DNA of 64,000 bases, taken from the NCBI GenBank assembly GCA_937974645.1, contig CALJVH010000013.1:10897-74896 (forward strand), given 5' to 3'. Numbering within the stretch: position 1 is the first letter of the stretch; every line of letters starts with the position of its first letter. A program made the position numbers and the translations under genes. Shown here piece after piece: positions 4,644 to 52,217 of this stretch. The DNA comes from an uncultured archaeon. Lineage in GTDB: Archaea > Thermoproteota > Nitrososphaeria_A > Caldarchaeales > Wolframiiraptoraceae. The notes under the pieces were generated by a model, which saw only the letters and a program-made list of their open reading frames with translations, ran no database searches and was not told the origin of the DNA.

Positions 4644-4779
4644 AGCCCGGTCGTCTAGCGGCCAAACCCGGCTGGTCAGATCGACAGGGGCCTTGGATTC
4701 CAGGCTCTGGATCCATTTTCATGAGGGGACACCTCGCGCCCAATACCTGGAGACGCCGGTTCGAATCCGGCCCGGGCTA
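4644..4779 (+). tRNA. tRNA-Gln(CUG), about 136 nt, with a canonical 37/38 intron (about 34 nt) and an additional about 30 nt insertion in the D-arm region
   Basis: Acceptor AGCCCGG/CCGGGCU with discriminator A. D-loop AGCGGCCAA is typical of archaeal tRNA-Gln. Anticodon stem CCAGG/CCUGG with loop CUCUGG^A split by an intron. T-arm GCCGG-UUCGAAU-CCGGC. Confidence 0.6.
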
Positions 4780-4859
4780 TAACCTCCCCTCTTTCAATAT
4801 TCCCCCTATCGTATGTGCGAAGTAGATTGGGGAAAGAAAGGTGGGGTTGGGCTGGTTGG

Positions 4860-5600
4860 GCGTCGTTTCTAGTAGTCCGTGTCCTCTGAGATATTCTTCG
4901 AGCTGCCGTTGTTTTCTCTAGATTGTGAATCCCACGAGCTGATAGAACCTCAGCAGATGTGACACCCTGATATAGAGATAGTAGACGTTCCTCTTCCTCA
5001 TGTATGTCTTCCCCCTCTCCTTGTTAAAGATGGAGGTTCCTTTCTTTCCTTGTAGATGTGGGCCCGTCGCCTCCGATCCCCCAGACCATGTAAGAGTTTC
5101 TGGATGTATTTGAGGAGGCGTCTATCCGAGTTGTAGCATATAATGTCTCCATCGCCTCTATCTGCATATTCCTCGCTGTCGAAGAATCCTCTCAGGAAGC
5201 TCCTCGCACAATCCTCGGAATGCTCCACGAACCGTCTTATCCCATCTATATCGATGGGCTTTCTTAATAGGTCGTAGAGGGCTTTCGACCGAACCCGCAC
5301 CACAAACAATTCCCCCCTCACTGCTGGCCTCGGCGGACTCCTGCCGAGAACTTTCCCAAGCATCTCGCGAATTCCTCTATGAGCTCCCTGTCCTTGGCCC
5401 TTGCGTCGATCACATACTGGCCGCTTCTTATGCTGATTTTACAGGCTGACCCATCCCCTGCTACAACGCCTATGATGTAAGCGAGCTCGGGAGACGGCTT
5501 TAAGAGGAATCCCTGGATGAGTTTGAGGAGTCGATTAGGCAGTCCGCGTGACACCCAAGTAAGAGAGCCGCAGATAACCGAGCCGCTGTAGCCTCATAGA
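4860..5600 (-). pseudogene. Decayed paralog of the LAGLIDADG-family gene at 49996..51078. Frameshifted, with an internal stop and a truncated N-terminus.
   Basis: ORFs 5318..5554 and 4998..5363 plus a downstream frame encoding ...LLRFYQLVGFTI* align colinearly with the intact copy (LAYIIGVVAGDGSACK, FLRGFFDSEEY). Conserved 3' flank next to a tRNA. Confidence 0.6.
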
Positions 5601-49875: not shown

Positions 49876-49976
49876 GCCCCGGTAGCTCAGGCTGGTTAGA
49901 GCGCCGGCTTGGTAACCTTCACAAGAAAGGGCCTAGAGAGCCGGAATGGTCGTGGGTTCAAATCCCACCCGGGGCT
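49876..49976 (+). tRNA. tRNA-Thr(GGU) with 24-nt canonical 37/38 intron
   Basis: GCCCCGG-UA-GCUC-AGGCUGGUUA-GAGC-G-CCGGC-UUGGUA^A-GCCGG, var AAUGGUC, T-arm GUGGG-UUCAAAU-CCCAC, acceptor CCGGGGC, discriminator U. Confidence 0.7.
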
Positions 49977-49995
49977 AAATTGCCCTTCAGCCGCC

Positions 49996-51078
49996 TCATG
50001 TTGCAGGCGTGAAGCAAAAGGAAGGGGGAGAGGGTTTGTTGGGCGGCGCTTCGCCATCTTCCACTAGTCCGCGTTTTTTGAGGCGTTCTTCGAGCCGTTG
50101 CTGTTTTCTTCGTATTGTGAACCCTATTAGTTGGTAGAACTTTAGCCTGCTTCGCGCTCTAACATAAAGAATGTAGACGTCCCCCTTCCTTACATACGTC
50201 CTCCCCATGTCCCTGTTGTAAAGGGGCGTCCCCTTCTCTTTCCGTACGTATGCTGTTGTTTCGACCCCCAGACCATGTAAGAGCCTCTGAACGTATTCGA
50301 TGAGCCGGATATCTGTATTGGCGCATTGAAGAATTTCCCCACCTCTGCTCACAGATCCCTCGCTGTCGAAGAATCCCCTCAGGAAGCTTCGTATGCACTC
50401 CTCTGAATGCTCAACGAATGGCTTTATCCTTTCTACGTCTATGGGCTTCCTGAGCATGTCGTAGAGTGCCCTCGAATAAACCCTTACCATAAACGACCCA
50501 TCCTTTCTTGGCATCGGCCTCGGCGGATCCCTGCCGAGAACCTTCCCCAAGCATCTCGCAAACTCCTCCACGAACTCCACATCCTTGGCCTTCACGCTGA
50601 TCACGTACTGGCCGCTTTTCCTGCTATTCTTACATGCCGTCCCGTCTCCGGCAACGACGCCTATGACATATGAGAGCTCGGGTGACGGCTTCAAGAATTT
50701 AATGGACGGAATCCTGCATCCATTAAGTGGATTGTGGATTCCCCTACACCAGTGGCAGATCGTGGCGGGGTTCAACCTAATCCCGTAGATCTCCTCGACC
50801 ATCCTCCCTATCCTCCTGTGTCCGAGGCCCTGCCCCCTCAGCTCCAGAACCCTATGATATATCTCGATCCTCAGATCTCGCGGGAGATATTCTCCACGCC
50901 TCTTCACCCTATCAGGGAAGAGCTTATAATACCAGTACTCGACGGCTTTCCTCGAAACATCCACCCCATCTTCCCGCAGCATCCTCCAAGCCATCGTATA
51001 CCCATATCCTCGCTGAACAGCTACCCTCAAGGCCTTCAAAACCCTCCACCTCACATCAGGCGGCATTCCTCGAGGCAT
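49996..51078 (-). CDS. Double-motif LAGLIDADG-family protein (endonuclease fold) with a 140-aa N-terminal basic, possibly DNA-binding, extension
   Basis: Motif 1 LSYVIGVVAGDGTA and motif 2 FLRGFFDSEGSVS, each followed by the expected helix. Intact 360-aa ORF immediately 3' of tRNA-Thr. Confidence 0.75.
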   Translation of the reverse strand: MPRGMPPDVRWRVLKALRVAVQRGYGYTMAWRMLREDGVDVSRKAVEYWYYKLFPDRVKRRGEYLPRDLRIEIYHRVLELRGQGLGHRRIGRMVEEIYGIRLNPATICHWCRGIHNPLNGCRIPSIKFLKPSPELSYVIGVVAGDGTACKNSRKSGQYVISVKAKDVEFVEEFARCLGKVLGRDPPRPMPRKDGSFMVRVYSRALYDMLRKPIDVERIKPFVEHSEECIRSFLRGFFDSEGSVSRGGEILQCANTDIRLIEYVQRLLHGLGVETTAYVRKEKGTPLYNRDMGRTYVRKGDVYILYVRARSRLKFYQLIGFTIRRKQQRLEERLKKRGLVEDGEAPPNKPSPPSFCFTPAT

Positions 51079-51250
51079 CCTCCCACATCACCTCCACGAT
51101 GGAGATATGCGATGGACTCATCCAGAAACATCTGATATATGTAGAGGTCTAGGGATGCTTGGAGGGGTGTGGCGCGGAGCCTGATGGGCAAAGCCGCATC
51201 CACCAACAAAAACAATGCAATTAGGAGGAATATAAGCGGGGAGGGGTCGG

Positions 51251-51287
51251 GTGAAAATGGATGTCGCGGGTTCAAGGCCCGCCCGGG
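51251..51287 (+). repeat. Imperfect direct repeat of the tRNA-Thr 3' half (T-arm plus acceptor) with compensatory T-stem substitutions. Putative att-like duplication bounding a 1.3-kb insertion.
   Basis: aatggatgtcgcgggttcaaggcccgcccggggct versus tRNA aatggtcgtgggttcaaatcccacccggggct (GUGGG/CCCAC changed to GCGGG/CCCGC). Confidence 0.5.
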
Positions 51288-52217
51288 GCTCATTATATGA
51301 ATTCCGTGAATGAAATTAAGGAAAAAAGTAAAGGAAGGTTAAGTAGCATTTCAGCATCCATTATTCATAGTGACGCAGATATTGGATGAGTTGGATAAGT
51401 TCATGAGCACCCAAATGGGCCAGAGCATCTTCGCGCTTCAAGTCGAAGATGCAGATCTGGAGAGGCTGAGGAAGACATGAAAGCTATGTTGCTTATTCTG
51501 CTCGATACCTGTTGAAAGGCTATTACATCTACAAGGGGCACGCGCTCAAGATGCAGAGTCCAGTGATAACGTTGGTCGAGAGGCTGGGAGATGTTGCAAA
51601 CGTCGAAAAAGATCTGCTCATCCGCCTCTCAAACCTCTTCGTAATGCACGAAAAAATTCTAGGCCTAGAAAGCTTAATTATGCTCGCACGCTTCCCAAGG
51701 TGGGGCCTTGACCTGCCGGCGCGCGTTCCAGGGGGTAAAATTCGAATGGAAGTTGAAAGATTTAGAGGGCGACGTGGAGTATTGAGTGGTTGGGAAGAGG
51801 GATGAGAAATCCGGCTATTTTACAGTTTTATTCGATGTAAGGATGGATAAGAGGAGAGGTGTCAGTACGATAGACTTCGAGGTCTTCGGATTTTCTAGGC
51901 ATGTGGTTGAAGGCATGGGATGGAAGACCTTAGAGGACGCGATAATGGCCCTGAAAGAGTAGATAGTGGAGATGAAGATATCGGCTCTAGGATGTCATGT
52001 TAAGTGAAATCCACGGATAAGAAAGAGGTAAAGGAGAAGCTCTTGGAGCTTATGAGAGCTTTCGGCTAGTCCCTCGATTAAGGAGCGGCGGTAATAGCAA
52101 CAGTCCTGCTTTTCAGAAAGGCCTCTTAGGAGGAGAAAGATGGATTACTAGAGAGTGCGATGCCGTTAAAAGCGAGAAGCTTGATTTTTATTATCGCCAT
52201 ATGTTCTTTTTGGTGGC

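Follow-up and report, generated by a model that had tools for sequence, protein, structure and literature searches.

Behind a tRNA-Thr(GGU) gene in the analysed stretch of contig CALJVH010000013.1 from an uncultured archaeon of a hot spring (the window, which is the whole stretch of 64,000 nucleotides) lies a free-standing LAGLIDADG homing-endonuclease gene (HEG). This gene converges on the tRNA from the opposite strand and is followed by a second, incomplete copy of the tRNA 3' end. The window contains tRNA genes with introns and is therefore archaeal. All coordinates given here are positions in the window in plus-strand numbering, and the features of the locus are:

49876-49976, plus strand: tRNA-Thr(GGU), found by ARAGORN with introns enabled and by the Rfam tRNA model (53 bits)
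49876-49914, plus strand: 5' exon of this tRNA
49915-49938, plus strand: 24-nt intron at the canonical position
49939-49976, plus strand: 3' exon of this tRNA
49945-49976, plus strand: non-ancestral 3' portion of the working tRNA-Thr, from comparison of the 3' exon with relatives
49977-49995, no strand: 19-nt spacer that separates the tRNA-Thr 3' end from the stop codon of the convergent HEG, read from the sequence
49996-51078, minus strand: intact free-standing LAGLIDADG HEG of 360 amino acids (Pfam LAGLIDADG_3, E = 2e-20)
51079-51255, minus strand: non-coding region upstream of the HEG, read from the sequence, with a TATA-like AATATAA at about 51229-51235 (plus-strand reading)
51256-51290 (core 51263-51290), plus strand: displaced original 3' end of tRNA-Thr(GGU), from alignment, relatives and a second assembly

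The tRNA-Thr(GGU) gene was overlooked by the default tRNA scan because of its intron; its end at 49976, which a preliminary description of this DNA had already given, was confirmed by ARAGORN and Rfam. From 49945 it reads as a variable region AATGGTC (7 nt), a T arm GTGGG-TTCAAAT-CCCAC, the acceptor strand CCGGGGC and the discriminator T. The same description had placed a copy of the T arm and acceptor strand at 51251-51287. This copy is real, but it ends at 51290 and the earlier coordinates were ~3 nt off at the 3' end. The core of the distal copy reads GTC-GCGGG-TTCAAGG-CCCGC-CCGGGGC-T on the plus strand, which is a well-formed T arm followed by the acceptor 3' strand and the discriminator, and a weaker likeness (AATGG, a variable-loop remnant) reaches back from this core to 51256.

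The distal fragment aligns to the tRNA-Thr 3' end with a score of 36, whereas shuffling the 960-nt search region 200 times yielded scores of 16 on average and 26 at most. The likeness of the T arms alone is unspecific, as an unrelated tRNA-Lys in the window scores 40 in the same alignment; what is specific to the repeat is that its acceptor strand and discriminator (CCGGGGCT) are identical to those of tRNA-Thr. The two repeats share 24 of 28 positions, with the differences spread out and the longest exact runs only 8-9 nt long (GGGTTCAA, CCCGGGGCT). Their T stems differ in the way that had been described, with GUGGG/CCCAC in the working tRNA and GCGGG/CCCGC in the distal copy. An independent assembly of the same strain (Logan contig L102, 99.98% identical), which starts at 51227, contains the fragment and its downstream junction. 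A degenerate second tRNA with a 5' half, which the preliminary description had itself named as contrary to its view, is not seen: local alignment ahead of the distal fragment scores 12 against a shuffle mean of 14.6, the Rfam tRNA model gives no match at the fragment even at E <= 10, and no second tRNA 5' end of the GCCCCGG... type is found in the 64-kb window.

Archaea are known to have split tRNA genes and also tRNA introns outside the canonical position. One option is that the distal fragment serves as the 3' half of a split (trans-spliced) tRNA, or that it forms the 3' exon of tRNA-Thr, past a giant 1.3-kb intron. The intron-rich tRNAs of this genome and the still well-formed T arm of the fragment would agree with such an explanation. 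Yet a complete, well-scoring tRNA-Thr(GGU) already lies adjacent, there is no 5' half or complementary leader in the window and, by inspection, the junctions lack the complementarity for a bulge-helix-bulge motif. In addition, the HEG is antisense, a T-run at ~50072 would stop read-through from the tRNA, and the fragment has one T-loop substitution relative to the tail of HEG-free relatives, as expected of a relic. We consider this explanation extremely improbable, and it was rejected on the basis of the missing 5' half, the missing bulge-helix-bulge motif and the presence of the complete tRNA.

HEG-free relatives and the polarity of the repeat

Relatives of the locus were found among metagenomic contigs, which were located via the flanking genes and by a pattern search with the tRNA-Thr 5' exon. 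In the window, the locus is flanked upstream by a Kdo-like kinase and PmbA/TldD and downstream by GT2 (dolichol-phosphate mannosyltransferase-like) and ThiL. The search for an empty site in related genomes, which the preliminary description had suggested, was successful: an orthologous tRNA-Thr(GGU) without HEG is present on 11 related contigs, seven of which extend past the tRNA, and four of these seven (L084, L086, L087, and L089) reach GT2 within ~150 nt. L084 has the order kinase-PmbA-tRNA-Thr(GGU)-GT2-ThiL with 144 nt from tRNA to GT2 and no HEG, and in the three others this distance is ~70-150 nt. The 5'-exon pattern search accounts for eight further orthologous genes (L086-L093), none with a HEG on its contig. 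Among the seven other HEG-free contigs, four stop at, or a few bases past, the last base of the tRNA. These include both contigs of the closest relative (PmbA 78% identical; L082 and L083), in which the tRNA is present and its last base is the very end of the contig; L105 and L106, which cover the GT2 side in the same runs, do not overlap with them. Presence/absence polymorphism of the HEG is therefore seen at orthologous tRNA-Thr(GGU) sites.

Three independent metagenomic contigs, L082 (end 5226), L083 (end 1763), and L092 (start, as fetched), break exactly at the last base of tRNA-Thr(GGU), which is also the position where the family elements described below begin. Such breaks may reflect the coexistence of filled and empty alleles in the populations sampled or a repeat that breaks the assembly.

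Comparison of the 3' exons gives the repeat a direction. Ten relatives (L082-L084, L086-L089, L091-L093, plus L090) have one 3' exon type, GCCGG-AGG(T/C)C-GCGGG-TTCAAAG-CCCGC-CCGGGGCT, and L085 differs from it in the T stem. The 5' exon of the window tRNA-Thr shows 0 differences from L082, L090, and L091. Its working 3' exon, GCCGG-AATGGTC-GTGGG-TTCAAAT-CCCAC-CCGGGGCT, differs from the relatives' type by 3 substitutions and a 2-nt insertion, which make the variable loop 2 nt longer, replace a C-G pair of the T stem by U-A in a compensatory way and change one position of the T loop. The distal fragment, in contrast, is identical to the relatives' type at 27 of 28 positions, the sole difference being in the T loop. 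This match and the alignment score bear out the earlier claim that the repeat is genuinely tRNA-derived. The preliminary description had assigned the compensatory stem changes to the copy, and here the roles must be reversed; the changes are no sign of decay in the copy: the distal copy has the ancestral stem and the working tRNA has the unusual one. Because the relatives' 3' exon type matches the distal fragment and not the working 3' exon, the sequences indicate that the resident tRNA originally ended in what is now the distal fragment and that the tail of the working tRNA is a newcomer brought in with the insert.

Another explanation for the two different tails is a local duplication followed by divergence in situ, in which the HEG insertion duplicated the resident 3' part and the working copy then mutated, possibly under selection for blocking cleavage. 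Selection for resistance to the endonuclease is known to act at homing sites, and both copies can be read as mutated forms of an ancestral variable region GGAGGTC (proximal, GGA-AT-GGTC; distal, GGA-T-GTC). However, this explanation needs five changes in an essential tRNA, all of them in the 3' exon while the 5' exon stayed the same, and import accounts for these more simply. It also has to account for a 3' exon type that stayed constant in ten relatives whose PmbA and GT2 proteins are only ~70-85% identical to those of the window, and we know of no nuclease or transposase that produces a 35-nt target duplication. Divergence in situ is thus an unlikely origin of the imported-looking tail.

The region further downstream is variable. 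From the distal fragment to GT2 there are ~930 nt in the window (51291-52217), compared with 70-150 nt in the four HEG-free relatives. This region has a lower GC content (45%) and contains two overlapping small open reading frames (ORFs) with no family match, 51512-51805 (97 amino acids) and 51786-51962 (58 amino acids). The relatives L103, L105, and L106 have different small ORFs in this place, and the downstream flank of tRNA-Thr is therefore a variable spot. It was also observed that the conserved GT2-ThiL pair is preceded, depending on the lineage, by differing tRNA-Thr isoacceptors (GGU or CGU) in either orientation (L103 4120-4212; L107-L113), which suggests that tRNA-Thr genes have mediated rearrangements in this region.

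The nuclease and its family at tRNA 3' ends

The HEG is the sole sizeable ORF between the repeats with a protein-family match, in agreement with the single LAGLIDADG gene of 360 amino acids that had been reported there. Its protein contains two LAGLIDADG motifs, VIGVVAGDG (D145) and FLRGFFDSEG (E240). Both catalytic acidic residues are invariant in an alignment of 37 homologs and align with D21 and E117 of I-DmoI. A sequence search of the PDB matches the protein to the nuclease domain of PI-PfuI and to I-DmoI. The AlphaFold2 model (pLDDT 87.5) predicts a tandem alpha-beta-beta-alpha-beta-beta-alpha core, preceded by two N-terminal three-helix (helix-turn-helix, HTH) bundles at residues ~7-53 and ~67-112. 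In Foldseek, the top 34 PDB matches of this model are all I-DmoI (best E = 6.5e-10; target-normalised TM score ~0.72), with WhiA further down the list. The N-terminal part of homologs has precomputed matches to the Pfam HTH families HTH_21, HTH_32, and HTH_23/28/29. HTH domains of these families occur in transposases. The protein itself has no transposase catalytic domain, its N-terminal domains being of HTH type only. Owing to the LAGLIDADG_3 match, the invariant catalytic residues and the I-DmoI-like fold of the model, it is plausible that the protein is an active monomeric LAGLIDADG nuclease with extra DNA-binding domains.

The preliminary description had noted the absence of a recombinase, and this holds: in the ORFs listed for 49977-51290 and in the small ORFs at its flanks, Pfam scans detect only LAGLIDADG_3, with no recombinase or fragment of one. 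The base composition of the insert is not distinctive (GC 52.6%). Compared with relatives, the HEG DNA is only ~66-72% identical and the likeness is confined to the ORF; blastn against the 79 family loci described below matches only within 50053-51060, so that the non-coding ends of the insert show no DNA likeness to other copies.

The protein has 132 database relatives, mostly in metagenome-assembled genomes (MAGs) of Aigarchaeota/Caldarchaeales and other Nitrososphaerota, with a few in Nezhaarchaeales, Jordarchaeales, and Thermococcus/Pyrococcus. The family also has a few members in Bathyarchaeia. Only distant LAGLIDADG relatives (26-32% identity) were found on viral contigs, which gives no evidence of a viral vector. 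For the analysis of genomic context, GTDB was scanned with a single genome for each species, and we used the best 79 of the 165 genomic matches confirmed. A tRNA on the opposite strand lies within 300 nt of the HEG 3' end in 46 of the 77 evaluable loci, in the same layout as in the window, whilst the background rate elsewhere in these loci is ~0.007 tRNAs per 300-nt strand window. The associated tRNAs belong to ~24 species, and thus the same protein does occur beside other tRNAs, a check that had been proposed from the window alone. Ten further loci have only a T-loop motif beside the HEG 3' end, and these are probably tRNAs with unusual introns. The idea of a minimal selfish element, a lone LAGLIDADG gene tied to a tRNA, is borne out by the same solo layout across the family.

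Several genomes contain many copies: at least 10 in CAKZUF01, at least 7 in JAVYLC01, and at least 5 each in JBEPYO01 and JAVVGN01. The five copies of JAVVGN01 are 74-86% identical over ~1 kb; four lie behind tRNA-Thr, tRNA-Ser(GCU), tRNA-Asn, and tRNA-Ser(GGA), and the fifth (L063) has no tRNA found nearby. In the four tRNA-linked copies the likeness begins one base past the tRNA discriminator (...|ATATTAGTTATTATTTTGAG...), and a pair of copies in CAKZUF01 has an equally sharp start right after the discriminator. On the other side, the likeness stops ~70 nt upstream of the start of the protein match in the four JAVVGN01 copies whose upstream side is on the contig. Neither terminal inverted repeats nor target-site duplications were found in these paralog boundary comparisons. 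As the copies start right after the last base of the tRNA, the family colonises the tRNA 3' flank and not an attachment (att) site inside the tRNA, and this precise abutment to the tRNA 3' end is the general property of the family. In a neighbour-joining tree the HEGs group by genome and not by tRNA identity, and therefore they have moved between non-orthologous tRNAs within genomes. At least 8 assemblies of Geocrenenecus-like MAGs have, upstream of GT2-ThiL, a HEG with an identical protein that lies behind tRNA-Thr(CGU).

A second such site is found in the window itself:

4644-4779, plus strand: tRNA with two introns and a nuclease-gene remnant behind it, found by ARAGORN and by the Rfam tRNA model (38 bits, two insertions)
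4843-5506, minus strand: truncated, frameshifted HEG paralog (~residues 128-351), convergent with this tRNA, found by tblastn and blastn

ARAGORN labels this tRNA Ala(CGC), but it is probably tRNA-Gln(CUG), as A1 pairs with U72 and the anticodon loop contains CUG. The paralog is covered by three tblastn high-scoring segment pairs with 49-75% identity and is 72% identical to the intact HEG over 651 nt by blastn. No distal tRNA fragment is found at this site (4644-5506). Two other truncated copies, both from the same Caldarchaeales MAG, retain the C-terminal coding part only: L027 1930-2277 behind tRNA-Gly(UCC) and L054 788-1217 behind tRNA-Ser(UGA). All three truncated copies keep the tRNA-proximal end.

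The HEG may also reach into the tRNA. In nine loci (L003, L017, L018, L020, L025, L027, L037, L044, and L066) the stop-free frame of the HEG enters the antisense of the adjacent tRNA, with a coding overlap of 18 nt in L025 and of 53-105 nt in the other eight. Three loci have something other than a tRNA as the convergent RNA gene annotated nearest downstream, namely 5S rRNA in L035 (1484-1602) and signal recognition particle (SRP) RNA in L062 (3236-3550) and L072 (4064-4376), and in the latter two a T-loop motif lies between the HEG and the SRP RNA. With regard to transcription, the first T-run downstream of the working tRNA-Thr in the window is only at ~50072 (GCGTTTTTTGAGG), ~96 nt into the antisense of the nuclease gene 3' end, while HEG-free relatives have a T-run within ~20 nt of the tRNA-Thr end; in other family copies the AT-rich element end (e.g. 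ATATTAGTTATTATTTTG) may act as a tRNA terminator.

The regularity of this layout raises the option that the protein is a domesticated DNA-binding factor that acts on tRNA gene expression or processing, similar to WhiA, and that the repeat in the window is an unrelated rearrangement scar. WhiA, a transcription factor which combines LAGLIDADG and HTH domains, is indeed among the structural matches, the convergent placement beside tRNA genes is very regular, and the identical protein at one site in at least eight MAGs could be seen as conservation of a host gene. However, neither of the catalytic acidic residues varies. The genes are multi-copy and often truncated or frameshifted, their presence at orthologous sites is patchy, and the copies group by genome. 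These are hallmarks of a selfish element and not of a regulator, so that domestication seems to us very unlikely.

A proposed homing mechanism for the tRNA-Thr locus

The mechanism that best fits our data, and that we hold to be fairly probable, is that the insert is a free-standing HEG which colonises tRNA flanks and which, at this locus, homed with replacement of the tRNA tail. The enzyme would make a double-strand break in or beside a HEG-free tRNA gene, and the break would be repaired by copying from a tRNA locus that bears the HEG, with the conserved tRNA sequence as the homology anchor on one side. Here the donor would have been a different tRNA-Thr gene that shares the acceptor stem: a diverged ortholog, or else an isoacceptor (CGU or UGU). 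The resident 5' part would have primed copying through the donor variable loop, T arm, acceptor strand, HEG, and ~180 nt more, so that the imported tail would now complete the resident tRNA-Thr(GGU). The far end would have been joined without homology at the resident variable loop (possibly with GGA microhomology), a process of homology-facilitated illegitimate recombination, and the resident 3' end would have been left beyond the HEG as a decaying 35-nt fragment, giving the product order A-B'-HEG-B. The altered variable loop and T stem may make the working tRNA immune to re-cleavage. As for the donor, the tRNA-Thr(CGU) of a close relative (L103) has TGGTC and TTCAAAT, as in the imported part; together with the family HEGs behind tRNA-Thr(CGU), this sequence makes an isoacceptor donor plausible.

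Several points weigh against this mechanism. Regarding the donor, no tRNA with a 3' exon of the proximal type was found among 101 loci. Regarding the junctions, the boundary of the paralogs one base past the discriminator suggests, from sequence comparison, a precise insertion at the tRNA end, whereas at the window locus the break or crossover would have to lie ~30 nt further upstream, within the variable loop; furthermore, the left junction has 2 extra nucleotides and is therefore not a clean homologous crossover. Regarding the family, ~20 loci have no adjacent tRNA, and in L010 (196-1371) the HEG lies on the same strand as a tRNA-Ser(UGA), with its 3' end against the 5' end of that tRNA, which breaks the convergent rule. 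In this locus the reverse-complemented acceptor 5' strand resembles an acceptor 3' strand, and this hints that recognition involves, among other things, the acceptor-stem sequence. A distal tRNA fragment was not found above chance in the 36 other tRNA-linked loci (last 42 nt of the tRNA against 900 nt upstream of the HEG), nor in a T-loop motif scan upstream of the HEG in all 79 loci. The flanking repeat is thus peculiar to the window locus and not a family feature, a single footprint and not the att-like repeat of the preliminary description, and replacement of the tRNA tail is not how most family copies look. Regarding the enzyme, its cleavage activity and target site are inferred. Finally, the contrast between 0 changes in 39 positions of the 5' exon and 4 events in 37 positions of the 3' exon is marginal alone (Fisher p = 0.05), and it becomes convincing because one 3' exon type spans relatives with flanking proteins 70-85% identical.

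The layout of the locus also resembles the product of an integrase. In tRNA-targeted integration, a complete tRNA with the incoming 3' part is formed and the displaced host 3' part is found at the far end (PMC9897764). As with elements of the SSV or pNOB8 type and phage-type tyrosine recombinases, the tRNA tail in the window is replaced and the host copy is displaced distally. The insert could therefore be the stump of an integrase-mediated element, a virus or plasmid in tRNA-Thr, with the repeats as attL and attR, a new tail given by attP and the HEG as an incidental passenger. The order of a complete tRNA with an element-supplied 3' part, cargo and a displaced host 3' part matches the signature of such integration, a mosaic tRNA is predicted equally well, and the region downstream of tRNA-Thr is variable among relatives. 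On the other hand, no recombinase or fragment lies between or beside the repeats and the HEG is the sole gene, the repeats contain no long identical att core, and inspection of the sequence indicates that one reciprocal crossover cannot derive both junctions from the ancestral variable loop. Viral contigs have only distant relatives of the family, and the other family members have no flanking repeats. The position of the HEG is explained without an integrase because at least 46 family loci without other cargo have the same convergent layout. Given this family-wide solo-gene architecture, the stump of a larger element is less likely, and we consider it improbable.

Homing with tail replacement can be compared with other known systems. 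Free-standing HEGs of phages that use intronless homing (T4 SegB in a tRNA gene cluster, SegF, and SegG) are intergenic beside a conserved gene, make a double-strand break in the HEG-free allele and cause co-conversion of neighbouring markers; the Seg enzymes are GIY-YIG proteins, single-copy per site, which compete between co-infecting phages. The window HEG is similarly intergenic, 19 nt from the tRNA, and the mosaic tRNA of this one locus resembles a co-conversion tract. Unlike the Seg genes, its family is LAGLIDADG, chromosomal, archaeal, and spread across about two dozen tRNA genes. HEGs of organelles (e.g. in fungal mitochondrial rps3 and atp6) enter a gene and restore it with a co-transferred 3' portion, while the old one persists downstream as a relic; in contrast to these protein-coding hosts, the host gene in the window is a tRNA in an archaeal chromosome. 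By analogy, the window element would work most like the intronless-homing genes of phages, and it also resembles the organellar HEGs that replace a gene's tail.

With regard to the enzyme, I-DmoI, I-Tsp061I, and the nuclease domain of the intein PI-PfuI share with the HEG protein the monomeric double-LAGLIDADG fold and the catalytic Asp and Glu, and are archaeal and thermophilic. However, I-DmoI-type enzymes have ~20% identity to the HEG protein, are encoded inside rRNA introns or inteins and have no N-terminal domains, whereas the window HEG is free-standing beside tRNA genes, multi-copy and has two N-terminal HTH bundles. Retrotransposons that target Pol III genes (Ty3 and Dictyostelium TRE) spread in many copies with a strict preference for tRNA gene flanks. 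The HEG family is likewise multi-copy at tRNA flanks and resembles insertion sequences in its HTH_21 and HTH_32 N-terminal domains, but it has no transposase, reverse transcriptase, terminal inverted repeats, or target-site duplications. The window element is neither a tRNA-integrating element of the integrase type, from which it differs in having no recombinase, no identical att core and a cargo of one gene only, nor an insertion sequence.

Meaning for tRNA genes and archaeal mobile elements

No description of archaeal free-standing LAGLIDADG genes at tRNA 3' ends was found in the literature, subscription-only literature not being covered. A 2026 survey of LAGLIDADG enzymes limits free-standing HEGs to intergenic sites and does not mention tRNA (PMC13619312). 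The family of HEGs at tRNA 3' ends is large and apparently undescribed, and its parking one base beyond a tRNA gene suggests a third strategy. tRNA genes are the most conserved and most repeated class of small genes in a genome, and a site in their flank offers a conserved target and a homology anchor without interrupting the gene, together with the chance to spread to many paralogous tRNAs.

A broader idea, which we offer only tentatively, is that the HTH-LAGLIDADG genes are a distinct class of archaeal mobile elements, without intron or intein and similar to insertion sequences. Such elements would insert precisely at the last base of a tRNA (occasionally perhaps of other stable-RNA genes) and hop between non-orthologous tRNAs, with the sequence or shape shared by tRNAs serving as both target and anchor, and the window would hold the product of an invasion that swapped half of a tRNA. 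If this is true, homing endonucleases would be mechanistically linked to the way in which tRNA gene fragments, and possibly also split or mosaic tRNA genes, arise in archaea.

If homing into tRNA flanks is confirmed, this would be a new kind of tRNA-targeting mobile element in archaea, and its members would give engineering a range of thermostable nucleases whose specificities are related yet diversified. HEG copies that break assemblies may explain contig ends at tRNAs in MAGs from hot springs. Confirmation would also establish an origin of tRNA gene fragments and chimeric tRNAs that does not involve an integrase, which would matter for the annotation of tRNA genes and for ideas on the origin of split tRNAs.

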